Origin: Psammoneis japonica
Taxonomy: Eukaryota
Direction of reading: 5' to 3'
Assembly: GCA_008632985.1 (NCBI GenBank)
Contig: QPGO01000077.1
Span: forward strand, 357,694-377,693
Length of the DNA stretch: 20,000 nt
The notes under the pieces were generated by a model. That model was not told where the DNA came from and ran no database searches. It saw only the letters and a program-made list of their open reading frames with translations. How positions within the stretch are numbered: position 1 is the stretch's first letter; every line of letters starts with the position of its first letter. Positions 1,658 through 17,608 of this stretch are shown here, piece by piece. Position numbers and translations under genes: made by a program.

Positions 1658-2149
1658 TTGTCTAAAAAGTTCGAGATGCTTTTTCAGACCAGTTGAACAC
1701 CAAACAAAACACCGCGTTTCCAAAGCAACCGCTAACGTTTCTGCCAACAGCTGTCGCCGGTTTCCAGTGCTCGCCAATGAGATGTAGGAAATGAAAGTCC
1801 TTATTCTGTAGTTGAACGAATGCGGCAACATAAGAGGTGAGCTGACGAGCGAGCGCGAGTTCAGAGTGATGAAAAGTTGTGAGTCAGTCGCGGGAGAGAT
1901 GGATGAAGATAACCCGGAAGGTACGTTACTTTGTCCCCAAGTTGCGTAGAACTTGGTACGTTTCTACCTGGGTCGTGGGTTTTGGTCGCGTGAGTTCGAT
2001 GATGGCGGGGCGGGAGTGATGAGTGATGTTGATGTCAAAAAGCAAAACGCGAAGAGGCAGAACAACACACATGTCAAAACGTGAACATGACAAGGCAGAA
2101 TACTCAACTGCTGTCAGCGCTCACGAGTATGTAGGACTGTCAACTTTCT

Positions 2150-4522
2150 ATGATGAGCACGAATAATATTGAAAAACCAGGTGATCCTCGATTGGGCAGC
2201 TTGCTGCATGAGGGGCTGAACGGTGACATTGTTTTTGTACTCTGGCCGTGTGATGAGGTATGCTAGAACGTTGCTCCGTTTGATGCGACTTGGTCTACCG
2301 TGCATAGATCCTAATCATTCATTGTGAATTGCGATGTATTTTATTTACAGGGTGTCAAGCGAAACGGGGGACGACTTGGTGCGGCAGGAGCGCCTGCGAG
2401 GTTTCTACAGTTTCTTAAAAGCATGGGAACTATCCATAATCCGGAGTATGACATCGATTTGTCATCCATTGAATTGTCGTATTATTTTGTCAACCTAAAA
2501 GATCTGGATTTTGACAAGGACAAAGGTGCATTGGACAAAGCGCACGATCGTCTAACGGAGATAGTATCCAAAGTGCTCGATTCGGGAGGAGTTCCCTTTT
2601 GTATCGGTGGAGGCAACGACCAATCATTTGCAAACTGGAGAGCTTGAGGCAGTCAGTGGCAAAAGGCTCCCGAATAGGAGTTGTGAACGTCGACGCTCAC
2701 TTGGATGTTCGGCCACTTGCCAATGGACAGCCTCATTCGGGTACGCCGTTTCGGCAAATTCTGGACTACGACGCCGCAGCCAGAGACGGGACAACAGTCT
2801 TGTGTGAATTCGCAGCTCAAGGCAGTCAGTGTAGCAAGGCCATGCGAACTATGTAACTTGCAGGGGAGGCTCGATAATGTGGTTGAGTCAAGTACGAACC
2901 GTCGCCATGTCCCACTTTAAAGATGTTTTGGCACGCCATCATGCCTCTGGCATAGACCATGAGTTCGTGTCATTCGACTTGGACGCGATCAAAGCTTCTG
3001 ACTGCCCCGGTGTCTCGTGCCCATCCAACACCGGTCTCACGGCAGAGGACGCAATAGGAATCATGAGAATGGCGGGGGAGGCAAGGCATGTAAAACTTGT
3101 GGACATGTCGGAAATGAATCCAAAGATTGAGGACTACATTACCCCTCGCCTTGCCGTGCAAATGGCGTATTCTTTTATTCTTGGCTACACGAAGCGCGAC
3201 CGCGAATCAGTTCCTTTGAAAGACCGACACTTGAGCATTCCGCATCGTCGGGCTTTTCGCCTTCGTATTTCCCACCTGAGTCAGTTAGTTTGCGTCGAAG
3301 ATGTTCAGAAACAGGGTTTCCGAACGGGCGAGCATATGAGGATACTCAACATTGTCGAGGATGGCACGATTCTTGTGGATCGGAATGGCCGCATTGCTTA
3401 TGCTGGTCCAGCCGAGGATGCTCCTGATGTTGACAAGGACGAAGTCGAACAGGAAATTGATGGAGAAGGCAAATCAGCCATACCTGGACTCTGTGATGGA
3501 CATACACATTCCTGTTGGGCTGGTGATAGAGTGAATGAATTTTCGATGAAGCTAGCGGGCGCCACTTACATGGATATTCACAAGAAAGGCGGGGGCATAG
3601 GCTTCACTGTCAAACACACCCAACAAACTGACGAAGCGAGCTTGTACACAAGTCTGATAGAGCGACTAGATGACATGAATAAGACTGGTACGACACTTGT
3701 GGAATGCAAAGCGGTTACGGGCTCGATGTTACGACTGAGCTAAAAATGCTGCGAGTAATTGATAAGGCTCATCACAATCTGGGGCACGTAGACGTTGTTG
3801 GGAATTTCTGTGGTGCGCACTCGATTCTACAAGGAATGACGGAGGAAGAAGCCTTGGATTGCGTAATAAACAAAATGATCCCGGCTTTGACTGAGGAGAA
3901 GAAACATGGTAGAATGGCCTCGACAAGGCTAATTGACGTGTTTGCAGAAGATGGGGTATTTAGCAACTCGTCGACAAAAGCTATTCTCGAAGCTGGAGCA
4001 CGAATTGGATTGCTCGGCAATTTTCACGGTGATGAACTCACGTATCAAGCATGCGGCGAACTGGCTGGAAAATTGAGGTGCCGCGCAGTGAGCCACCTAG
4101 AGCATGTCAGCGATGAAGGAATTTCAGCAATGGCAGAAAGCCATACGGCAGCTATACTTCTACCCACTACGGCCTATGTGCTAAGGATGAAGCCACCCCC
4201 TGCCCGTAAACTTATCGACAACGGGGTTCCCGTTGCTCTCGGCTCAGACTTCAATCCAAACGCCCACTGCTCATCCATGGCTCACGTGATGAATCTTGCA
4301 TGCGTCACGATGCATTTGTGTGTTGAAGAAGCCCTTGTTGCCAGCACGCTTAACGCAGCATACTCAATGGGCATGCAAGAGAGTCACGGCAGTTTGGAAG
4401 TCGGCAAGCACGGCGACATTGTACTTGTAAATGCTCGACGATGGGAGCACATCATTTATCAATTCGGTGGCATCCCGCCTTTGTTCGCCGTGATCAAAGA
4501 CGGAATCGTAAGACGTTTGTAA
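2150..4522 (+). CDS. hutG-hutI: Bifunctional formimidoylglutamase (HutG, arginase family) - imidazolonepropionase (HutI, amidohydrolase) fusion, ~760 aa after correcting three 1-bp frameshifts
   Basis: Exon 1 2150(or 2153)-2257 (GDPRLG...WPCDE), intron 2258-2350 (GTATGC...TTACAG), exon 2 2351-4522. HutG motifs: [52 protein letters not shown]. The same open frame (2877-3743) continues into HutI motifs PGLCDGHTH and [18 protein letters not shown]; after the third frameshift come ECKSGYGL, CGAH, FHGDEL, SHLE and ALGSDFNP. Frameshifts at ~2644, ~2840 and ~3710 could be assembly errors or pseudogenisation. Confidence 0.9.
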
Positions 4523-4561
4523 ATCCGTGTTATGCTGAGAGTTCTAGTTTACTTTGTGAGA

Positions 4562-7500
4562 TTAAAGGTGCTTCATTGGCATGTTAATGCTGTGCTTTCT
4601 CGCCGTTTCTTCTGCTTCTTCGTACCCAGCATCGACGTGGCGCATGACACCGGTAGCAGGGTCGCCTTGCAAGACTCGTCTCAAGCGCAACTCTGCTTCT
4701 TGTGTCCCATCAGCGACAATAACTTGTCCAGCATGAATAGATTTGCCAATGCCGACCCCACCTCCATGATGTATTGAAACCCAAGTTGCACCATTCACCG
4801 AATTTATCATGGCATTGAGCAGCGGCCAGTCAGCAATAGCGTCGGAACCGTCCTTCATACTTTCAGTTTCTCTGTTTGGCGAAGCGACAGAGCCGCAATC
4901 AAGGTGATCTCTCCCTATCACGATCGGTGCTGAGATTTTACCTTGGGCTACAAGTTGGTTGATGCGTACTCCAAACGCTTCTCGTTCGCCCATACCAAGC
5001 CAACAGATTCGACAAGGAAGCCCTTGGAATTGAACTTTTTCTTGAGCTTGATCAATCCAACGTCGAAGAGGTTCGTCATTAGGAAATAGCTCCTTCACAG
5101 CCTCGTCAGTCACCGCAATATCCCTTGGATCTCCTGATAAAGCAACCCACCGAAAGGGCCCACGACCACGACAGAACTGAGGACGAATGAAGAGGGGTAC
5201 AAATCCTTGAAACGAGAAAGCTTTTTCATAGCCACCTGCTTTCGCCTGACCACGAATATTGTTTCCATAGTCAAATACTACGGATCCCTTTTCTTTGAAG
5301 CCGACCATTGATCTAACTTGCTCCACCATTGACATGATCGACCGCTTTTTGTAGTCCTCGGGGTCGGACTTTCGAAGTCGAAGTGCCTCTGGGTAGCGCA
5401 TTCCATTTGGCACGTATCCGTTTAGTTCGTCGTGGGCAGAGGTTTGATCAGTCTAAACAGTTGCCACACGAGGACAGAGTTGAGGGCAATCGTTCCGCAG
5501 TAATGCATGAGAATCCTCAAAGGATGGGACTTACCACCACGTCGGGGATGATACCTCTTGCAAGTAGCGCGGGGAACACGTCTGCGGCGTTGGCGACAAC
5601 CCCGACAGACAAAGGAGTGTTGTTTGCCACTGCCTCTTGACACCACGAAATTGCTTCGTCTAGAGTCTCAGTGAGGCGATCCAAATACCGCGTCCTGATT
5701 CTGCGCTGGGCTCGATCCTTGTCTACTTCGACGCAGAGAGCCACGCCGCCGTTCATAGTGATAGCAAGTGGCTGAGCACCTATGGAATGAATGAATACGA
5801 AAATGTTGAGATCTGCCCGTGAAGAAAAAATGACGACACACAAAACAATTTGTAAGTTAGTCTACGAACCTCCCATTCCCCCGAGCCCTCCTGTGAGTAC
5901 CAGCCTACCAGCGAGAGTTCCATCGTAATGCTGCCTGGCTAATTCTGCAAGAGTCTCAAAGGTCCCCTGAAGAATTCCTTGGCTTCCGATATAAATCCAT
6001 GAACCAGCAGTCATTTGGCCATACATGATTAACCCTTTCGCTTCGAGTTCGCGGAAGTAATCCCAGGTCGCCCACGATGGGACAAGGTTGGAGTTTGCTA
6101 TTAGGACTCGTGGAGCATCACGGTGGCTTCGAACGACACCCACCGGCTTTCCAGACTGTACCAATAAAGTTTCATCATCCTCGAGCTCCGTTAGCACCTT
6201 TAGGATCGCGGTCAACGCTTCGTGGTTCCGTGCAGCCTTGCCGGTGCCTCCATACACAACAAGGTGGTCAGGGTCCTCTGCCACATCTGGGTCCAGGTTG
6301 TTCAAAAGCATGCGATACGCAGCCTCTTGTTGCCATCCTTTGCAGTGCATTGTCTTTTTGGGAGCCACCGTCCCGCCATTTATCTCGCTCTGACTTGCGG
6401 CATTAAGAGCGCATTGTACCGTCTTGGAGAGAATCCCGCTTCGCACTAGACGAGCCGCGGCCGCCATGTGCGGTGCCATCTCCACATCTTCTGGAAGAAA
6501 CGGAATGTTTGAGCGAACGAGATCATGTGCTGCGGATGTACCTCTCCCCATTTTGGCGTTACTACCAAGCTCTCGACGCCGATACTCGACACCTTGTGCT
6601 GCAGCCAACAATTCGATTCCCAGAATATTCTCAAGGTTTCGGAGGATACGTCTAGCTTGTCGAACCGAGATGGGACCATTGGACACGTGATCTTCCACGT
6701 TTGCTGAAGTGGGGAGGCTGTCGGCACTAGCAGGGAAACAAAGTGCCTTGTTTTCACTGGCCAGCGCTGCCGAAGTGTACTGTGTAAGCATAAACCCCGA
6801 ATTCAAGCCACCCTTTTCTGTCAGAAATGGAGGTAGAATACCATTATTGCTCGCCGGATCGGTAAGGCGATTCAGTCTCCGTTCCGAGATGTTTCCTATT
6901 TCAGTCATTGCGAGCGAGAGATCATCAAAGGTGAGTGCTAGGGGTTCCCCATGAAAGTTCCCACCGCTCTTGGCAACAGCGGATCCATCGTCTTGGAAAA
7001 AGATGAGCGGGTTGTCCGTAACACTGTTCAATTCAATGCTCAAAATCCGTCTCGCATTTTGAAAGGCGTCAGCACAAGCTCCGTGCACCTGCGGCATGCA
7101 TCGAAGCGAGTACGCGTCCTGAGGATCTTCTCCGAGATCGGAACGAACAAACGTGGATCCTTCCAATAGCGCTCGCAGCTCCCTTGCCGTTTCAATCTGA
7201 CTCGGGTGCGGACGAACCTTTTGAATGTCGGGATCAAGGGCTGCCGCGGTTCCGTATAACGCCTCCAACGACAACGCACCGGTAATGTTGGCCACGTGCG
7301 CACAATTCTCGGCTTCCACAATCGCTAAGCACCCCAACGCTGCCATCATGGCTGTACCGTTTGTCAATGCCAAACCTTCTTTTGCTTCCAACTCAACTGG
7401 TTTTAATTCTACTTTTGCCAATGCCTCGGCGCCAGCAAGGACTTTTCCGTCAACCACAGCTTTTCCTTCACCAATCATGACCAGCGACATGTGAGCCAAC

Positions 7501-7955
7501 GGAGCAAGGTCGCCACTCGCACCCAATGATCCTTGTCGGGGCACAATGGGATGAACCCTCCGTTCAATCATGTTTAGCAATAGTTCAAGAGTTGTCAGTC
7601 GTATACCAGAATACCCCGAAGCCAACGTGTTTGCCCGAATGAGCATCATGGCACGAACGGCGTCGGCTTCGAGAGGCTTGCCAACTCCGGCAGCATGAGA
7701 TCGAACAATGTTGCGTTGCAATTCTTTCAAATCAGCCTTTTCGATCAAGGTCTTTCGGAATGCTCCAAATCCTGTAGTGACACCATAGACCGTCTTGTTT
7801 TCGTTTACCATTTCTTGTACGGCCTCTGCACTCTTGTTGACCGCCTCAATCGCATCTCTTGACAGTCGCAACTTTACCGTCTCTTGTTCTGCTTTTGCAA
7901 TCGCCACCACATTTTCAATTGTCAGTTGATGTCCATCAATTGTTAGTTCCAACAT
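4562..7955 (-). CDS. hutH-hutU: Bifunctional histidine ammonia-lyase (HutH) - urocanate hydratase (HutU) fusion, 1073 aa, 3 exons
   Basis: Exons 7955-5870, 5779-5535 and 5452-4562; introns 5869-5780 (GTTCGT...CATAG) and 5534-5453 (GTAAGT...TTTAG). Splicing restores GGMG|GAQPLA and [12 protein letters not shown]. HutH motifs: VYGVTTGFG, the HAL-type RSHAAGVG, the MIO-forming [11 protein letters not shown] (7512-7520), [19 protein letters not shown]. After a short linker (~6351-6410) HutU begins: [77 protein letters not shown]. Confidence 0.96.
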
Positions 7956-8360
7956 TTTCTATTGTTTGATTGGAAGAAATGGGACTTGATGTGATGATGG
8001 CGGTGTCAGAATTTTTTGTCATTTTGGATTTTGCGACCCCAAAAAAAAATGAGAAGCGAATGCTCACGGATGACGGGCAGAACAGAGAGTTTCGGTGGTG
8101 TTCCCAAATTGTTTCCACGTTTGAGATTCCGGATTCCGATGAAAAGCTGAGGCAATGACGTGTTGAGTACTACAAAAAACGTATGATCTACATACGAGTT
8201 TCGCTGGTACTGATACCACGTAGCATCCGCCCACTTTTGGCCTCTTTCCAGCGCCTTCGACAAAGACAGAGCGTTTCACGGCCGTGCCGTTCTTGTGTTT
8301 TGTTTGGGCAATTGTTTTGATTTGTGAGCGAGCCAACGACGCCCGAGATTGACATCCATC

Positions 8361-11300
8361 ATGTCGAACGAAGTGGTAGAGAATGGTAAACAAAACGGAG
8401 AAGCAGCGGCGGCGGTTCAGCCAATACTAGGCATGGAGGGAACTCCCGCTGAAGCTCCTGCTCAGTCAAAACCCAAACCTACTTTTGCTCGTTCCGACAC
8501 AGCAGACACGTTGGAATCTTCGGAAGATGTGGACGAAGAAGAAGCGCTGCTTGTTTCCATCGAAAAGCAACAGGAAAAAGAAGACGCAGAGGAAGCGGCA
8601 CACCCACACCCTCAACCCAAAGACATTGCATCTGCACCGAAATTGCTGCAGGACATGCTGAAAAAGGGAGAAGTAAAGGCGGACGAGTCAGAAGAAGAGT
8701 CAGAAAAGGAAGAGAAAGCGTCGAAAGAGGCCGCAGTAGCGAAAAAAGGAACTGAAGAAGAGAAAAAGGGCGAGGAAGGGGAGGCACCTCCGTCTCCCGT
8801 GCGACACTACCATACGAGGGTAGGTGGTATCTTTTGTCATTGTTTTGGATCCATATGTCGTGCTCGAAAGGTTGCAGTGCTTTGTTTGGTGCTGTATTGT
8901 GCTCAGACAGGTCTTAATGAGACAAGTTGAGGGTATACAGTGAGAATGTCGAAGAAGCGGTTCTCCTGCGCTGTTTTTCGATTTTCCCGCTTTTTTTTGT
9001 TCCCTCACGTCTCGCCCACGCGTCTTTCTTACGATTTTTAAATTTCCCTCTTGTACACAGAGAAGTCAACTGGACGAGCTACTCAAAAAGGCTTCTCAGT
9101 ACTCTGGTTTCATCTCCAGAGACTTGGAAGAGCTTCAAGAGTCCTTGACGCAAACCGCAAAGAAAAAAGTAAAGTCAGCCGAAAAGAGCAGAAAGCGCAA
9201 GGCAAAGGCCGGGGGCTCTTCCAAGAAGAAATCGAAAAAGAATGACGGTGAGGCTGCTCTCAAGTCTGCGCAAGAGAAGCACGCCTCCGAAATGCTTCAT
9301 GCAGGTTCGAAACCGATCTTTGTCCAGCCACCCAACTTGGCTGCCGGCTGTGTCCTCAAGGACTATCAGCTGGAGGGTGTGCGCTGGCTCACCTCCTTGT
9401 TTGAGAACGGCGTATCTGGTATCCTTGCGGATGAAATGGGACTCGGTAAGAGAAGTTGGCCCAATTTCACCTACAGCGGATATTATTGTTTTGCGCAAGA
9501 GTGAATGAGTTGCTAACAAACGTCTCTTTTCTGTTCCACTACTGCTGCTATTTTTCATTAGGAAAAACTATCCAGGTTATTGCATTGATTGCGCATCTCT
9601 TGACCAAGAACGTTGCGGGGCCGTTTCTCATTGTTGCTCCTCTTGCTACCCTTCCTAATTGGGTGCGCGAGTTCCAGAAATGGCTTCCGCAGAGACCCGT
9701 TCTACGCTATCACGGCAGTGCTACCGACCGCGATGCTATGCTCAAGGGCATGATGCATCCAAAGCAACGAAAGCTCCCGACCTTTCCCTTTATTGTGACC
9801 TCGTACGAAGTAGCCATTCGAGATCAGTCCAAGCTGGAAAAGTTGAACGAATACACCTATCTCATTGTCGACGAAGGGCAGCGCCTCAAGAATCACCGTT
9901 GTACGCTGCTTGCGTCGCTAAAGCGGCTCAAGGCGAATAACCGTTTGTTGCTCAGCGGAACCCCCATCCAGAACAACTTGGACGAATTGTGGAGTCTTCT
10001 CAACTTTGTAAATCCCGATATCTTTGACGACCTTAAGGTTTTCCAGAGTTGGTTTGGTTTCAAGGATATTGGACAGATTGACAAGGGAGGTACTAAAGAA
10101 GAGGCAATCATGATGGAACAGCGCAAGAACGACACTGTCTCCAAGCTTCACGAGATTCTTCGTCCGTTCCTTCTACGACGCATCAAGAGCAATGTGCTCT
10201 CCGAGTTGCCTCCAAAGAAGGAGGTTGTGGTTTACTCGGGCATGTCCAAGTTGCAGTCCGGGTATGCGGATCTTATTGAGAAGGGTGTTCTGAGGGATAC
10301 CCTCATTAGCCAAGGTATCGAACAGGGTCGTACATTGAGCCAGACAAACAAGCAGATGAATCACCGCAAGAATGTCAACCACCCCTTTTTGTTCGGAGAA
10401 CCCATTGACCCGGCCACTGGAGCGCACCTTGGAACCGCCCACCCGCAGCTTCTCGTCCGTGCCAGCGGCAAGTTTGCTCTGCTTGATCGAATGCTTGATC
10501 GGTTGCACCGTGACAAGCACCAAGTTCTTATCTTCAGCCAAATGACATCGCTGCTGAATGTAATTGAAGACTACTTGCTCTATAGGAAGTGGAGGTACTG
10601 CCGCATTGACGGTTCAACCAACATTGATGACCGTCAGAGTCAGATGGACAGGTTTAACGCGGAGCAGACGGCAGGCAAGGACGGAACTAGGAATGATAGC
10701 GATGACCGCTGTTTTGTGTTTTTGCTCAGCACCAGGGCTGGTGGTCTCGGAATCAACTTGGTAAGTCATCATGGTTGGGAGCTTTATGCATTCAGCTGCT
10801 CTAGAATGGAGAGTCTCTCACCTCGTTACCATATGTCTGTTGACTGAAGGCAACGGCCGATACGTGCATCATTTTTGATAGGTACGTCGAGATTGTACAG
10901 TACTCCATTGACAGTTGACCAGACGTTTTCTTGTTCTCTCAACTCTTTCTATTGTTGTCCTTTCTTCTTCCTGCGACAGCGACTGGAATCCGCACCAGGA
11001 TTCGCAGGCAATGGACAGGTGCCATCGAATTGGCCAGACTCGCCCAGTTGCAGTGTATCGCCTACTCACAGCGGGTTCTGTCGACATTGAAATGATGGAG
11101 AAGCAGATCTCGAAAAAGAAGCTCGAGCGCATGACCATCACGGGAGGCGACTTTAGAAAGGCAGGCAGCCGCTCGGTTGGAGAAAAGATCTCGTCCAACG
11201 AGCTGAACAAGCTCTTGGAAGACGATATTAAGGATATTCACGCCAAGGGGGCGGATATTGAAAGTATCAAGATCAACGAAGACGAGTTCGATATGATTAT

Positions 11301-11412
11301 GGATCGTGAGAAGTTGTTCGCGACGGGTGCGGATGCCATCAAGACCGAGGGCAAAATGTACGATGTTCTAGACGCTGCCAGCGGGGACCTTCTCGGAGGT
11401 GTGAATGCTTGA
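8361..11412 (+). CDS. HELLS: SNF2-family chromatin remodelling ATPase, LSH/HELLS/DDM1-like (~835 aa, 5 exons)
   Basis: Exons 8361-8819, 9061-9445, 9562-10760, 10850-10881 and 10980-11412; all introns are GT-AG with consistent phases. Motifs: [16 protein letters not shown] (DDM1-like N-terminal helix), [122 protein letters not shown]. No bromo, chromo or SANT domain is visible. Confidence 0.88.
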
Positions 11413-11503: not shown

Positions 11504-12185
11504 AAGAGACAGTGGACGACTCTCACCGACCACGATACAAGTAAAGTAGACTTATGGTATTTTGATCCTTTTGCTTGCACGAATTGTGATCAGTATAGAA
11601 TATCTAGCTGTGCAACACTAAAATTGACTATCAAAGTTCTTCATTCGAATACACAGCACCTCCCCCGTTCGTTCCCTCTGGAGGATGGCTTATGAGCAGT
11701 TCATCATACGTCCCTTGTCGTGCATCTTCCGTCTCTTCAATCGTTACATGATCTGGCTCGTGCCCGTTCAAGTACCTGCTCCAAACAAGCTCGAGTCCAG
11801 TCTGAAAGTTCTTGACATATCGCGGAACGTCCCAATAGGGGTGCAAGAGACAGTGGACGACTCTCACCGACCACGATACAAGTAAAGTAGACTTATGGTA
11901 TTTTGATCCTTTTGCTTGCACGAATTGTGATCAGTATAGAATATCTAGCTGTGCAACACTAAAATTGACTATCAAAGTTCTTCATTCGAATACACAGCAC
12001 CTCCCCCGTTCGTTCCCTCTGGAGGATGGCTTATGAGCAGTTCATCATACGTCCCTTGTCGTGCATCTTCCGTCTCTTCAATCGTTACATGATCTGGCTC
12101 GTGCCCGTTCAAGTACCTGCTCCAAACAAGCTCGAGTCCAGTCTGAAAGTTCTTGACATATCGCGGAACGTCCCAATAGGGGTGC
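11504..12185. repeat. Direct tandem duplication, 2 x 341 bp (11504-11844 and 11845-12185)
   Basis: The sequence starting AAGAGACAGTGGACGAC and ending CCAATAGGGGTGC occurs twice head-to-tail and looks identical by eye. The ORF track shows the same ...YSNEEL terminus at 11631 and 11972 (offset 341). Confidence 0.97.
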
Positions 12186-14458
12186 ATGGGGTTTCGCTGT
12201 AGACACGAGTCGATGAGTTTCTTTCGGATTGACTCGAGCATGGTTGCATTCTTCCCGAGAGCAATGGCAATGTCTTCGTATTGTTGTGGTCCATTGTACG
12301 CATTCAATTCTTCAAGTCCCAAAACCATGTTGGACGACGTTGTGACACGAGAGCACATGTCATCACCGTCACTACGAGTCACAATGGGCACACCGGCATA
12401 CAAGGAATCTTGAGCGACAGTGTGGCCATTGTATGGGTACGAGTCGAGCATGACATTGCAAAAGTCGTGATTCCTCATTTGATGGTCAAATGGGTTTCGT
12501 TGCCACGGGAGAAAATGTATGCGAGAATTCAATTCGTTTCCGTCTCCTTCCACAAAGCTGTCTTCATCGTTATTGTTTTCGGACGTACCCGCAGCCTCGT
12601 GAATAAATTTGCGGAGATATGGTACGCCCTCTTTGGGATTTTCCAAGAGACAAATCATGCTGTCGGGAACTTCTCTCAGGATTCGAATCCAACTCCGGAC
12701 AGTTTCAGGATTATTCTTGAGGAACTTGTTGAAATTGCAGTAGACAATGGATGGCTTCTCGGGACCCACCCCTGGCTTTGCCATGCATCGATTCGCTTGT
12801 GGACTGCCAGTCCCCAACTTGTACGGAGTCTCTGCTGGGGTATAGTCAAAAGTCGGTGCTTTCACCTCGTCCTGAATAGCGTGGCCTTTTGAAAAAAAGT
12901 GATTCGGCATGTAGATAAACTTCTCCGTGTACAAGTTCTCTAGTTCTGGAGGAGACGCAATCTTGTCTGTAAAAATGTAATCCAGATACTGAGCACCATA
13001 AGTGCCGAGAAACTCTTGGTGCAAGATTTGTATAGGCGCCGGTCGCAGAGCAAACAGTCCCTGCGCTCGCTCACCCTGACGAGCATAGCCATCCCATTCA
13101 ATCAAAATGTGGATCCCAGTATCGTGGATCCTTCGTGCCAAGGCCACATGATCAAGCTTGAGTTTTTGCACATCGTGAAAGTAGTCCACGTTGGACTTGA
13201 CTCGCTCTCTCCAATCCACTCCCCGCATTCCGTGTTGAATAAACACGGGCGAATCGGCTGGACCCATGGAGAAAATATGAACCTCATACTTGTTCTTGTC
13301 AAAAAATCGAAACATGTCGTGCGACAAGTACAAGACCGCCTTGGAATTAAAGCCGGATGCGACAAAACCAATCTTGAGCTTAAAGTCGGGCTTTTGCGCC
13401 TCACGAAAGAATCGTTTGAAATCCGCGTCATTGTCATTGCCGTAGGGAAGTCCAGGTGGCAGGGGCTTTAATTTCATGGTTTCCTGATCGATTCTGGCCA
13501 GCTTTTCATCCAGATACGCCGTACCCTCGGTTACGTAACGTTTCAGAATGGATTCAATCGGATAGCCCAGCATCATGTGTGGGTGAGTCGAGGTGCCCCG
13601 TTCCCAATGAAAGGTGCCTAATTTTTTGTTCACTGTTCGATACTCGGCTACTTCCTCTTTGGCAATTCGTACAATACGCTCCATGTCTTGATCAAACTGT
13701 GTCCCGTTGAAACCCCAATCAATAATCATGGTTCGGCAATAGACAGCATTCGAACACGAGGGATAGAGTTTTTGGCCCGATTTGAGACAACTCAATTCAA
13801 ACACATCAGCACAATCTTCGTATTTGCGGTCACTGAAAAATTTGCTTCCCAAGGCGTACAATTCTTCCGGCGTCATGTTTTCAATTTCGCGACTGGCGGA
13901 CGGCTTGTTTTTTGATGAGGTTGTTGTGGTTGTTTGACTCGGAGACGCATCTTTCTTTGTAAGTTCGTCAAGACCAAGTGTCTGTTGGAGCAGCAGTGCG
14001 TCTGGATGATTCGGATCGACAGCCAGAGCTTGTTTCAGATACATTTTACCCATATCCATTTGACCTCTCCCGACACTCTCGGTTGCAACATAGACAAAGG
14101 CATCCGCCATTTTATCCTGAACAGCAAAACACTGAACAAAGGGTTGAAAGGCTTGCTCCACACTGTATGCATTTCCAGATGACGCATGCATCAGAACGGC
14201 ACGCCAATAGTGCATGGCAGCTCTGTCATACTCTTTTAATCCAAAGAGTCGCTGACCCTCTGCGAGATTGGCCTTGCCATCGGTGTTTGGCACGGTCGTT
14301 TCAAAATTCAATTCCACGACGGAATTGACAGAAGCAAAGATCGAGACACATAGCATAAGAAATATTATTAGTTTTGAATGCAGCCGCCTCTGTGGTTGTC
14401 GGCTCAAGCAAAGCGACGCCATGTCGGAAAGCGGCAAAGGAGACATCCGTCTCATCAT
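11972..14458 (-). CDS. TPR-containing glycosyltransferase family 41 (OGT/SEC/SPY-like) protein with N-terminal signal peptide/anchor
   Basis: Single 828-aa ORF. TPR-like helices (ANLAEGQRLFGLKEYDRAAMHYWRA; YLKQALAVDPNHPDA). GT41 motifs: HPHM, LKIGFVASGF, IHDTGIHILIEWDGY, LFALRPAPIQI, LDYIFTD, YTEKFIYMP, YCNFNKFLK, DSYPYNGHT...DSLYAGVPIVT, SRVTTS. The exact start Met (1, 2, 5 or 13) is uncertain. Confidence 0.88.
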   Translation of the reverse strand: MMRRMSPLPLSDMASLCLSRQPQRRLHSKLIIFLMLCVSIFASVNSVVELNFETTVPNTDGKANLAEGQRLFGLKEYDRAAMHYWRAVLMHASSGNAYSVEQAFQPFVQCFAVQDKMADAFVYVATESVGRGQMDMGKMYLKQALAVDPNHPDALLLQQTLGLDELTKKDASPSQTTTTTSSKNKPSASREIENMTPEELYALGSKFFSDRKYEDCADVFELSCLKSGQKLYPSCSNAVYCRTMIIDWGFNGTQFDQDMERIVRIAKEEVAEYRTVNKKLGTFHWERGTSTHPHMMLGYPIESILKRYVTEGTAYLDEKLARIDQETMKLKPLPPGLPYGNDNDADFKRFFREAQKPDFKLKIGFVASGFNSKAVLYLSHDMFRFFDKNKYEVHIFSMGPADSPVFIQHGMRGVDWRERVKSNVDYFHDVQKLKLDHVALARRIHDTGIHILIEWDGYARQGERAQGLFALRPAPIQILHQEFLGTYGAQYLDYIFTDKIASPPELENLYTEKFIYMPNHFFSKGHAIQDEVKAPTFDYTPAETPYKLGTGSPQANRCMAKPGVGPEKPSIVYCNFNKFLKNNPETVRSWIRILREVPDSMICLLENPKEGVPYLRKFIHEAAGTSENNNDEDSFVEGDGNELNSRIHFLPWQRNPFDHQMRNHDFCNVMLDSYPYNGHTVAQDSLYAGVPIVTRSDGDDMCSRVTTSSNMVLGLEELNAYNGPQQYEDIAIALGKNATMLESIRKKLIDSCLQRNPMHPYWDVPRYVKNFQTGLELVWSRYLNGHEPDHVTIEETEDARQGTYDELLISHPPEGTNGGGAVYSNEEL

Positions 14459-14708
14459 TGTTTGCGAAATTTTTGATGGATGTCTACTCGTCTCAAAATG
14501 TCTCGCGCGATCATTTGCATTGCGCGCTCATCGAAGCAGTCTGTCTGCTTGCCAGCCGTCTATCTCTCACCGCAACCATCGATGCGTCAACCAATGGCTG
14601 TTTGGCGGTTGTGCTTTTTGCTCACTTTCTCCGGCTCGCTCCTCGTTTTGCAGCAATCGTTGCATCGACAAGCAGCTTAGACCTTAAACGTCGTAAATCA
14701 ACATCACG

Positions 14709-16097
14709 ATGAAGGTTAAGGCTCTCTCTCGTTCGATTGCGTCCACAGAACGAGAATGTTCCGGTGATTTACGCCGTCAATTTCGAAATCTAGATCCAAC
14801 GTCCCATCCCATGCAACGCGCTCGAGAGTACACTCGCGCCGTCACGGGTGCCAAATTGGAACGCATGTTTGCCAAGCCATTCGTGGGGACGCTGGGAGAG
14901 GGACACATGGATGCTGTCACAGCGTCGGCCACGTCACGTCGTGCCTTGGTGCCGCTTGTGAGTGGATCGGCCGATGGGGAGATTCGATTGTGGGATTTGG
15001 CGAGCCGCAAACGAGTGGCGACACTGACGGGAGAACATTCGCGTGTCGTGACGGGGCTTGTGTTTGGATTGGACGGGCAAGAATTTTATAGTTGTAGTGA
15101 TGATGGGCTTGTCAAGTTGTGGACAACGAATGCTAGAGCAACTAGCGGCAATAGTATCGCTGACGCTGCTGCTTCCTCTCAACATGGTCCGTTGGAAACG
15201 TGGAGAACACCGGGATCGTTTAAATCGATTGATCATCACTGGCACGAGGAGCAGTTTGCGACTGCTTCTGATGAAAGCGTCAATATTTGGAGTCCTGAAC
15301 GGAGCTCGCCTATTCAACGACACGTTGATTTGTGGGGAAGCCACGACACTGTAAATGTTGTGCGATACAATCCAGCCGAGCGAAACTTGTTGGCCCACTG
15401 TTCTGCCGATCGTGGCATTGGATTGCATGATGTCCGAGCAGGAGCCGCACTCAAAAAGACTGTGCTTCAAATGAGATCCAACTGTTTGGAATGGAATCCC
15501 ATGGAACCAATGAACTTTGTGGTGGGAAACGAAGACTACAATGCTTATACCTTTGATATGCGAAAGCTCGATCAACCAACACGAATCTACAAGGGCCACA
15601 TGAGTGCCGTCATGAGCGTGGGATGGTCTCCAACAGGACGTGAGTTTGTGACTGGCAGTTATGACAGGACGATTCGCATATTTTCCACAAAGGGCGGAGG
15701 TACGGCTCGGGATATTTACCACACGAAACGTATGCAACGTGTCTTTACGGTTCATTACACGGCAGATCACAAGTACATTGTTTCAGGAAGTGACGACACA
15801 AACTTGCGACTCTGGAAGGCAACCGCATCAGACCAGATTGGACAATTAACATCTCGAGAGGAGGCTGCACTGCGATACCGCCAGACCTTGGTGAAAAAGT
15901 ATCAACACTTGCCCGAAGTCAAGCGTATTAGCAAATCCCGCAAAATTCCCAAAATTATCAAGAAACAGACCGCCATTGTTCAAATACAAAAGGCAAGCTC
16001 GGATCGAAAACAATCCAATCGTATCAAGCATTCCAAGCCGGGGACGGTTGAGTTTCAAAGCGAGCGAAAGAAAACTGTTGTCAAGCAAGTGGATTGA
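14709..16097 (+). CDS. DCAF13: DDB1- and CUL4-associated factor 13 / Sof1 (WD40 SSU-processome protein)
   Basis: 462-aa ORF: MKVKALSRS, RNLDPTSHPMQRAREYTRAVTGAKLERMFAKPF, WD40 repeats, WNPMEPMNFVVGNED, SPTGREFVTGSYDRTIRIF, YHTKRMQRVF, SGSDDTNLRLWKA and a basic Sof1 tail. Confidence 0.96.
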   Translation: MKVKALSRSIASTERECSGDLRRQFRNLDPTSHPMQRAREYTRAVTGAKLERMFAKPFVGTLGEGHMDAVTASATSRRALVPLVSGSADGEIRLWDLASRKRVATLTGEHSRVVTGLVFGLDGQEFYSCSDDGLVKLWTTNARATSGNSIADAAASSQHGPLETWRTPGSFKSIDHHWHEEQFATASDESVNIWSPERSSPIQRHVDLWGSHDTVNVVRYNPAERNLLAHCSADRGIGLHDVRAGAALKKTVLQMRSNCLEWNPMEPMNFVVGNEDYNAYTFDMRKLDQPTRIYKGHMSAVMSVGWSPTGREFVTGSYDRTIRIFSTKGGGTARDIYHTKRMQRVFTVHYTADHKYIVSGSDDTNLRLWKATASDQIGQLTSREEAALRYRQTLVKKYQHLPEVKRISKSRKIPKIIKKQTAIVQIQKASSDRKQSNRIKHSKPGTVEFQSERKKTVVKQVD

Positions 16098-16798: not shown

Positions 16799-17299
16799 TT
16801 ATTCCCTGCTCCAGTTGTCTTTGCTTGGATTGCCGTGGCCACACGTCTCTGCAACAATCAGATCGCCAACTGATGCAGTTTGGCCCTGCCACACAAGGCA
16901 CATGTCGGTGTCAATCACCCTAATGACGATACCATCGTACTCGAGCTTCTGGAGAGGATTGGATGAGTCGCACTCCTGGAGACGGACCGTCTTTCCCTCT
17001 TCTAGAGGCCATGAAAGACCGGCCTGGATGCAGTAATCGTCGTCGAGTTCACTCTCAAACAGGCCATTACTACGCATCCGGAACCCGGTACATCCTGTTC
17101 CCAGGGCGAGCTTGGGTCTGCAGTTGCACACCGATGCCTGAACGCCGAGGCAGAGACCATCGGCATCATCGTTTCCGAAGTGTGTGTAGGAAGAACCTAA
17201 TTTCCGTAAACCACCATGCGTGTCGTCGAGCACTTTCCATCCACCTTGGACAAGAGGAATGGCGACAAGCGAGAATAACGCATGCACGGAGAGCTTCAT
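16799..17299 (-). CDS. Small secreted Cys-containing protein, ricin-B (beta-trefoil) lectin-like, 166 aa
   Basis: ATG at 17299; signal peptide MKLSVHALFSLVAIPLVQG; LRKL motif; three subdomains with the ricin-B-like pattern C-hydrophobic...C (GLCLGV..GTGC; DYCIQA..VRLQECDSSNPLQKL; DMCLVW..IVAETC..DNW). Confidence 0.7.
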   Translation of the reverse strand: MKLSVHALFSLVAIPLVQGGWKVLDDTHGGLRKLGSSYTHFGNDDADGLCLGVQASVCNCRPKLALGTGCTGFRMRSNGLFESELDDDYCIQAGLSWPLEEGKTVRLQECDSSNPLQKLEYDGIVIRVIDTDMCLVWQGQTASVGDLIVAETCGHGNPSKDNWSRE

Positions 17300-17608
17300 C
17301 GTTGTTACAGTGAAAAGATGTTGTTTGTCGATTGATTGAGATGCTTCAATATATGAGTTGGAAAAATGACATTCATTTTTTTGGAAGCCCATCACTGCAA
17401 GTCTCCGCTCTGCTCGCAGAAAGAGACATTCTTACATATGACACGATTGATTTGTTATGCGAGCCTTTCCAAGGCAATATAATCGGGGGCCCTTGCGATT
17501 CGGGGTCGCGCTTTCGGTCGGATGCGTCTATTGAGAACATCAATCGTGTCGCTTGAAAGGTCCTTCTCCGCGATGCTGAATCGTGAAAGAAAGTTCTTAC
17601 GATTGGAT

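Follow-up and report, generated by a model that had tools for sequence, protein, structure and literature searches.

The closest described systems for the degradation of histidine to glutamate are of two kinds. Bacteria encode the enzymes in hut operons, such as hutPHUIGM of Bacillus and hutUHIG of Pseudomonas and Klebsiella. For a eukaryote, Trypanosoma cruzi, PMC12203737 describes a type I pathway of four enzymes (TcHAL, TcUH, TcIP and TcFG) that ends in glutamate and formamide and states, citing its reference 30, that the activity and the structure of the formiminoglutamase have been established. The present study concerns a locus of Psammoneis japonica, contained in a stretch of 20,000 nucleotides (GenBank assembly GCA_008632985.1, contig QPGO01000077.1, positions 357,694 to 377,693 of the forward strand). 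I will refer to this whole stretch as the window and count positions from its first letter. Two convergent genes, lying tail to tail, carry all four sets of Hut domains within 5.8 kb: HutG-HutI joins an arginase-fold domain to an imidazolonepropionase domain, and HutH-HutU joins a histidine ammonia-lyase domain to a urocanase. Probably these are two intact, expressed nuclear genes that encode the whole type I pathway from histidine to glutamate as two bifunctional proteins, with the enzyme activities predicted from their domains.

The locus resembles T. cruzi, as that paper describes it, in that the organism is a eukaryote, the same four reactions are called for and the last would fall to an arginase-fold formiminoglutamase; it differs in that the four proteins are separate there and combined into two fusions here. 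With the bacterial operons it shares the four enzyme families and the clustering of the genes, but those genes are separate and co-transcribed, whereas here they are convergent, spliced fusions. Bifunctional enzymes of histidine metabolism are known, among them mammalian formiminotransferase-cyclodeaminase (FTCD), which replaces HutG in a folate-dependent route, and fused enzymes of histidine biosynthesis; these likewise place consecutive steps in one polypeptide, but the families and the steps are others. Clusters of metabolic genes are also known from eukaryotes, for example the DAL and GAL clusters of yeast, the nitrate-assimilation clusters of algae and the dab cluster of Pseudo-nitzschia. 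In these too, non-homologous genes of one pathway are linked and the linkage is kept among relatives; the difference is that here, by way of fusion, two genes within 5.8 kb suffice for all four steps of a pathway. The chemistry, all four families and the existence of eukaryotic fusions and small clusters are thus known, and what appears to be new is a complete four-step pathway in the form of two linked bifunctional genes kept across a lineage.

The reactions would be divided between the proteins as follows. HutH-HutU (1073 aa) would carry out steps 1 and 2, from histidine to urocanate and ammonia and from urocanate to 4-imidazolone-5-propionate. The C-terminal HutI domain of HutG-HutI (760 aa) would open the ring to give N-formimino-L-glutamate (step 3), which the N-terminal arginase-fold domain would convert to glutamate and formamide (step 4); the order of the domains in this protein is the reverse of the order of the reactions. 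Urocanate and formiminoglutamate would then be the intermediates kept within one polypeptide. Neither protein has an obvious N-terminal extension before its first domain, and for that reason my guess is that both are cytosolic. The likely benefit of the arrangement would be fixed 1:1 ratios and the inheritance, gain or loss of four activities as one unit. A role in the use of histidine as a source of nitrogen or carbon, which the first-pass annotation of this DNA had proposed, is reasonable to suppose from the membership of the domains in their families.

The evidence for HutH-HutU begins with an open reading frame (ORF) of 698 aa on the minus strand (5862-7958), which is free of stops from the start of HutH through Urocanase_N and into the Rossmann domain of the urocanase. 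On this strand the Pfam scan gave Lyase_aromatic an expect value (E) of 4.5e-189 and the N, Rossmann and C families of urocanase values of 1.2e-57 to 4.6e-94. The NCBIfam model for hutH, TIGR01225, matches residues 6-517 of the ORF over profile positions 2-501 of 506 and, at 639.8 bits, clears its cut-off (539.15 bits). The Ala-Ser-Gly triad, which in histidine ammonia-lyase forms the 4-methylideneimidazole-5-one (MIO) cofactor, is nearly invariant in the alignment of HutH-HutU proteins, and the domain matches the solved structures 1gkm (415 bits) and 6v6h (367 bits). The urocanase families are distributed over three exons in colinear fashion (N, positions 5-127; Rossmann, 1-40, 40-121 and 122-207; C, 1-195). 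Splicing of intron 1 restores the motif GGMGGAQPLA, and splicing of intron 2 joins onto TDQTSAHD. Against TIGR01228 (hutU), the C-terminal piece encoded in the last exon of the window alone reaches 471.7 bits, the cut-off being 375, and the homologue P0005 reaches 904.5 bits. The models for thiourocanate hydratase (669.8 bits, cut-off 930) and S-methyl-thiourocanate hydratase (703 bits, cut-off 880) do not reach the scores that they require.

Comparison with solved structures places the urocanase domain far closer to 1x87 (814 bits), 2fkn (787 bits) and 1uwk (719 bits) than to 6uek (286 bits), a protein of 681 residues that I take to be the urocanase of T. cruzi; to judge from these scores, the domain belongs to the short bacterial type. 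Among the 120 matches listed in the search with HutH-HutU, 94 are urocanases of 462-578 aa without HutH, and all of these that carry the name of an organism are bacterial; besides the close fusions, 13 others (P0014-P0023, P0025, P0046 and P0092) do have a HutH domain.

The plus-strand gene is broken in the assembly, as will be seen below, and its domains were found in pieces. Pfam recognizes Arginase in three frame pieces (E of 1.7e-4, 4.2e-6 and 4.7e-13), followed by Amidohydro_1/3 (E of 1.4e-12), and an ORF of 302 aa (2835-3743) contains the C-terminal end of the arginase and the N-terminal end of HutI in one open frame. A fusion homologue, P0121, is colinear with HutG-HutI over its residues 1-746. 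The hutI model TIGR01224 gives 120.5 bits for one piece in the window and 276.2 bits for the other, neither of which passes the cut-off of 298.15 alone because one of the assembly gaps splits the domain, while the intact P0121 obtains 409.7 bits. HutI also matches the structure 2bb0 (E of 1.4e-71). Amidohydrolases bind metal through a His-x-His motif plus later His or Asp ligands. The columns for H-T-H, GNFHGDE and SDFNP in HutI and for the metal motifs of HutG are invariant in all 12 aligned fusions, and the motifs are present in the window. The linker between HutG and HutI comprises about 35 residues and is poorly conserved in this alignment. A structure prediction for the homologue P0129, from an alignment of 13 rows, gave a mean predicted local distance difference test score (pLDDT) of 66.2 and a predicted template modelling score (pTM) of 0.47, with low confidence in the linker, and is too weak to speak to the packing of the domains.

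The identity of the arginase-fold domain deserves separate treatment. Its best NCBIfam family is hutG (TIGR01227). Residues 17-307 of P0121 match the structures 4mxr and 2a0m with E of 1e-71, about half of the residues being identical, and share with them GGGNDQS, D-x-H-L-D and SFD-x-D. The first structure was deposited as a formiminoglutamase and the second as a protein of the arginase superfamily; the classical bacterial HutG structures 1xfk and 3m1r score far lower. I take 4mxr and 2a0m to be the enzyme of T. cruzi, an assumption of my own with which reference 30 of PMC12203737 is consistent. Stand-alone homologues at 42-51% identity occur in Capsaspora, Hydra, Balamuthia, Planoprotostelium, chytrids, a dinoflagellate and others, and also in Nitrospinota. 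A tree of 133 rows, made by a quick method (FastTree, rooted at the midpoint) and with most rows unnamed, unites the window and all 12 fusions in one clade (support 93, with 98 for its core), which adjoins clades containing eukaryotes; all eight named Nitrospinota fall in a separate clade of 65 rows with no named eukaryote. By similarity, then, the domain would be a eukaryote-type formiminoglutamase like 4mxr.

Metagenomic loci offer a view of this hutG type in another context. It stands with hutU and hutI in layouts typical of bacterial operons (hutG-hutU-hutI and hutH-hutG-hutU-hutI, with all genes on one strand, hutU-hutI-hutG-hutU and hutI-hutG), and this adjacency ties the type to histidine catabolism. 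Among the 80 metagenomic loci that contain it, all bacterial-looking, at most 50% identical and without close relatives, there was no fusion of HutG to HutI. Three side observations may be recorded here. The 4mxr-type hutG lies directly upstream of hutU in the hut operons of L001, L006, L009, L017, L018, L022, L044 and L062, and also of L053 and L054. In L013, L014, L015 and L025, two urocanase genes, which share 53% and 57% identity with the query, flank hutI-hutG on one strand (hutU-hutI-hutG-hutU), an unusual duplication of hutU within a hut operon. Finally, the named stand-alone bacterial homologues of this hutG type are almost all Nitrospinota, which is odd for a family that is otherwise eukaryote-wide.

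The structure of both genes was compared with reads from two runs on one sample, X1 and X2, in which 0.98 and 0.93, respectively, of the words sampled from the stretch were found. Contigs derived from the reads were aligned to positions 1900-8200; a further run, X3, contributed none. X1 yielded an unspliced contig of 8384 nt that is continuous over 1900-7940, and the region is therefore contiguous DNA. X2 contigs remove introns of 93 nt (HutG-HutI) and 90 nt (HutH-HutU) exactly at their GT..AG borders, and X2 accordingly behaves as RNA-derived; its contigs also run unbroken over both domain junctions. Intron 2 of HutH-HutU (5453-5534) has no X2 coverage inside it and no listed read joint, and its position is deduced from its borders, the frame and the alignment of the homologue P0008, whose residues 818 and 819 abut at 5535 and 5452. 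One spliced X2 contig of 3314 nt extends from 2050 through the plus-strand gene and the spacer of 39 bp into the last exon of the minus-strand gene (to 5453). The convergent transcripts probably overlap at their 3' ends and could in that case pair as antisense; the contig need not correspond to a single transcript. The contigs differ from the assembly by substitution at two places in HutH-HutU: at 4580, in its last codons, those of both runs have G where the assembly has C, and at 6533-6534, close to the C-terminus of the HutH domain, X2 alone has AA in place of CG. Either difference could be an error of assembly, an allele or a difference in the RNA.

Exon 2 of HutG-HutI changes frame three times in the assembly, and P0121 aligns to it in four segments (residues 1-125, 125-186, 186-483 and 479-746) with no residues skipped. 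Introns were considered at the three changes and rejected: the homologues align straight through, and the contigs supply a single base at each site. The extra bases are present at the full listed depth in both runs (62/62 in X1 and 102.1/102.1 in X2), and when the three are added (written as N), HutG-HutI is open for 760 codons. The simplest reading of the frame breaks is that the assembly of the window lacks three bases. Similar false frameshifts may occur elsewhere in this assembly.

Table 1. Features of the histidine-utilization locus and its surroundings. Positions are those of the window; gaps are sites at which the contigs of both runs contain a base absent from the assembly.
Feature	Position	Strand	Remarks
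HutG-HutI fusion gene	2150..4522	+	760 codons with the 3 missing bases counted; ATG 2150; TAA 4520-4522
Exons of HutG-HutI	2150-2257, 2351-4522 (with stop)	+	
HutG-HutI intron 1	2258..2350	+	93 nt, GT..AG; skipped exactly in an X2 contig
HutG domain (arginase-fold, formiminoglutamase-like)	2204..3180	+	GGGND, DAHLD and SFDLD at residues 122, 151 and 244
Assembly gap 1	2642..2643	+	contigs add C behind 2642
Assembly gap 2	2839..2840	+	contigs add C behind 2839
HutG/HutI linker (approximate borders)	3181..3290	+	crossed without stop by ORF 2835-3743
HutI domain	3291..4519	+	HTH at residue 421, GNFHGDE at 593, SDFNP at 669
Assembly gap 3	3707..3708	+	contigs add A behind 3707
Spacer between the two stop codons	4523..4561		39 bp; crossed by one X2 contig
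HutH-HutU fusion gene	4562..7955	-	1073 codons, no internal stop; ATG 7955-7953; TAA 4564-4562
Exons of HutH-HutU	7955-5870, 5779-5535, 5452-4562	-	
HutH domain	6408..7943	-	TIGR01225, Pfam Lyase_aromatic (PF00221); Ala-Ser-Gly triad at residues 146-148
HutH-HutU linker (short)	6363..6407	-	within one open frame; alignable among diatom-type fusions
HutU domains N, Rossmann, C	4574..6362	-	split by two introns; GGMGG at residue 692, TDQTSAHD at residue 778
HutH-HutU intron 1	5780..5869	-	90 nt, GT..AG; skipped exactly in an X2 contig
HutH-HutU intron 2	5453..5534	-	82 nt, GT..AG; placed by borders, frame and homology
ORF of 328 aa	977-1963	-	without any Pfam family
SNF2-family helicase	8328-11412	+	GT..AG intron starting at 9447
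GT41 glycosyltransferase (O-GlcNAc-transferase-like)	11972-14527	-	
Sof1/WD40 protein	14697-16097	+	
Ricin_B lectin-domain ORF	16799-17431	-	

Several points weigh against the reading of this locus as two intact genes for a complete pathway, and they bear on different parts of it. HutG-HutI as assembled contains three frame breaks; contigs can hide a minor allele, and a broken copy beside an intact one is conceivable in the strict sense. Were the frameshifts real, the gene would be a decaying pseudogene and only HutH-HutU would work. The three single-base breaks do fall within 1.07 kb, and elsewhere in 1900-8200 the contigs neither add nor lack a letter, but both runs carry the extra base at every one of the sites and at full depth, the catalytic motifs are intact and the 760 codons are open, so that I give the pseudogene only a slight chance. 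The RNA-derived nature of X2 is judged from its spliced contigs alone, and the contigs are without transcript ends; separate internal transcripts, or cleavage into four proteins, could therefore still occur. The genes would in that case be fused at the level of DNA only, with internal starts of transcription or translation, or proteolysis at the linkers, yielding four enzymes. The starts and ends of RNAs are indeed not visible in the contigs, and the linker of HutG-HutI, variable and modelled with low confidence, would suit such a scheme. The domains, however, are not separated by a stop or an intron, the short linker of HutH-HutU can be aligned throughout the fusion clade, and the fusions have been kept in 12-13 clusters, which would be unexpected if the join were irrelevant. 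I regard four separate enzymes as improbable.

The last step of the pathway is exposed to a different doubt. The scores for hutG lie below the cut-off of 229.15 (153.4 bits for P0121 and 135.1 bits for P0129), and for this reason the domain is kept out of the bacterial formimidoylglutamase equivalog TIGR01227; models for agmatinase and arginase match as well, more weakly. Moreover, the position of the first metal ligand, usually His in arginases, is Asn. One might suppose from this that the domain acts on some other guanidino or amidino compound and that the pathway to glutamate and formamide is incomplete. Yet the best solved relative, with about half of its residues identical, was deposited as a formiminoglutamase and carries Asn at that position too. 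The partner of the domain in the fusion, HutI, is the maker of its presumed substrate, and bacterial homologues of the domain stand in hut operons. The activity of the T. cruzi enzyme, moreover, is stated as confirmed in PMC12203737. A different substrate has, in my estimation, little chance. There is also the possibility that the region stems from a bacterial contaminant or a faulty join in the assembly, to which the nearness of the urocanase to bacterial ones might point (73-87% identity over Urocanase_N, besides the score to 1x87). But the genes have three GT..AG introns, of which X2 contigs lack two through splicing, and the X1 contig spans the region without a break; because the neighbouring genes are eukaryotic and the content of guanine plus cytosine (GC) is even over the whole window, contamination or misjoining is very unlikely, to the point of being negligible. 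A final difficulty touches not the existence of the two bifunctional proteins but what they would accomplish. Imidazolonepropionate is chemically unstable, and it would be the intermediate that crosses between the two polypeptides; the fusions alone would therefore neither channel nor protect it.

Both fusions have relatives. With the junction region of HutH-HutU as query, 13 clusters (P0001-P0013) that contain both domain sets were recovered; they are 66-79% identical, and their full-length members have 1000-1114 aa. For the ORF that crosses the junction of HutG-HutI, a search restricted to longer proteins gave 12 clusters at 51-67% identity (753-832 aa, with Arginase and Amidohydro), the only other match being one unrelated protein with Amidohydro and PDZ domains. 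Seven pairs of HutH-HutU and HutG-HutI are co-located on one contig or scaffold. Six of these are recognized by contigs from the same source and of identical size (6155, 6372, 7350, 7381, 8348 and 153558 bp), and the seventh consists of genes.2 and.3 of scaffold112 of Amphora coffeaeformis, which alone among the relatives bears a species name. Where about 5.3 kb of a contig of 6-8 kb is coding sequence, no further gene would fit, and the linkage is therefore conserved. None of the 13 close matches to HutH-HutU and none of the 13 matches in the HutG-HutI search comes from NCBI or UniRef, which suggests that the pair is absent from the annotated model diatoms. The pipelines of the Joint Genome Institute (JGI) have automatically named such relatives 'urocanate hydratase' or 'imidazolonepropionase'. 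Within the reach of these searches, neither fusion occurs outside a single group of diatom-like sequences.

The first-pass annotation had ventured that the double fusion might be undescribed. No description of these fusions, or of genes for histidine catabolism in diatoms, was found in the full-text literature searched, from which subscription journals are largely absent, and the PDB searches returned no solved HutH-HutU or HutG-HutI fusion. Other genomes have the fusions as well, as the 13 and 12 clusters and the seven linked pairs attest. A comparison of P0005 with 1.84 billion cluster representatives gave 150 best matches that were all single-domain proteins below 680 aa; the fusions are not representatives in that collection, and the result is uninformative as to their spread. 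The ESM Atlas contained no usable match for P0005 and, for P0121, only clusters of bacterial imidazolonepropionases at 0.83.

Apparent fusions outside this group differ in character. Eight proteins with HutH first, at 46-59% identity (P0014, P0017, P0020, P0021, P0022, P0023, P0025 and P0046), were set aside: they have neither the linker of the clade nor the four-residue insertion that it carries near the C-terminus of HutH. Several of them have joins rich in Arg and Ala, resembling read-through out of frame. Four more (P0015, P0018, P0019 and P0092) have the opposite order, urocanase and then HutH. The relatives of P0023 belong to the Actinomycetota and have hutH and hutU as neighbouring genes, and a single ORF spans the two in just one of 78 loci. 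From features such as these, the bacterial look-alikes appear to be adjacent genes read through. The one exception, L122 (5968-9189, from a genome of Micropruina), has a single frame of 1074 codons over hutH and hutU and may be either a genuine bacterial fusion or an error of sequencing.

If the activities are confirmed, the locus would constitute a compact two-gene cassette for the complete four-step degradation of an amino acid, and a clear case of a eukaryote that has fused and linked the genes of a pathway into compact form, for which bacteria rely on an operon. It might then serve as a marker for benthic diatoms that draw nitrogen from dissolved histidine or peptides. Since the fusions join steps 1 and 2 and steps 4 and 3, one may ask whether the benefit lies in stoichiometry and joint inheritance or in a larger complex. 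The affinities of the domains are mixed, bacterial-type and eukaryote-type; the pair may combine parts of different ancestry and would be a useful case for the study of how transferred and native genes are combined. A bolder proposal is that the locus is a 'supergene' that originated once, in one lineage of diatoms, from parts of mixed ancestry (a urocanase of bacterial type fused to histidase, and a formiminoglutamase of eukaryote type fused to imidazolonepropionase), that it is inherited, lost or transferred as a unit of 5.8 kb, and that its two proteins form one complex of four activities in which imidazolonepropionate passes from HutU to HutI. I think this unlikely as a whole, though it merits statement.

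The first-pass annotation had described motifs for all four hut enzymes within 5.8 kb, in two intron-containing genes whose stop codons are 39 bp apart, flanked by unrelated eukaryotic genes. Pfam and NCBIfam place all the domains within that interval, the gene models agree with the introns and the distance between the stops, and the genes for SNF2, GT41, Sof1/WD40 and Ricin_B proteins on the right are eukaryotic and unrelated to histidine metabolism. The misjoin or contaminant that it had named as a danger is very unlikely, given the continuous X1 contig, the introns spliced in X2 and these neighbours. Its term 'operon-like' is apt for the clustering and for nothing more: each gene has a start of its own, the two converge and both are spliced, and therefore they cannot be one transcription unit. 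An operon of bacterial type occupies one strand and one transcript unit, and this locus does neither; like a metabolic cluster, it consists of adjoining non-homologous genes of one pathway whose linkage is kept in relatives.

One minor observation concerns the sequences upstream of the two genes. An identical 11-mer, GATGATGGCGG, is found at 1998-2008 and at 7993-8003, that is, 152 nt before the ATG of the plus-strand gene and 38 nt before that of the minus-strand gene, the two copies being oppositely oriented with respect to their genes. By a rough estimate, about 0.05 matches would be expected by chance in the two upstream stretches, and the repeat is a weak lead for an element of shared control.

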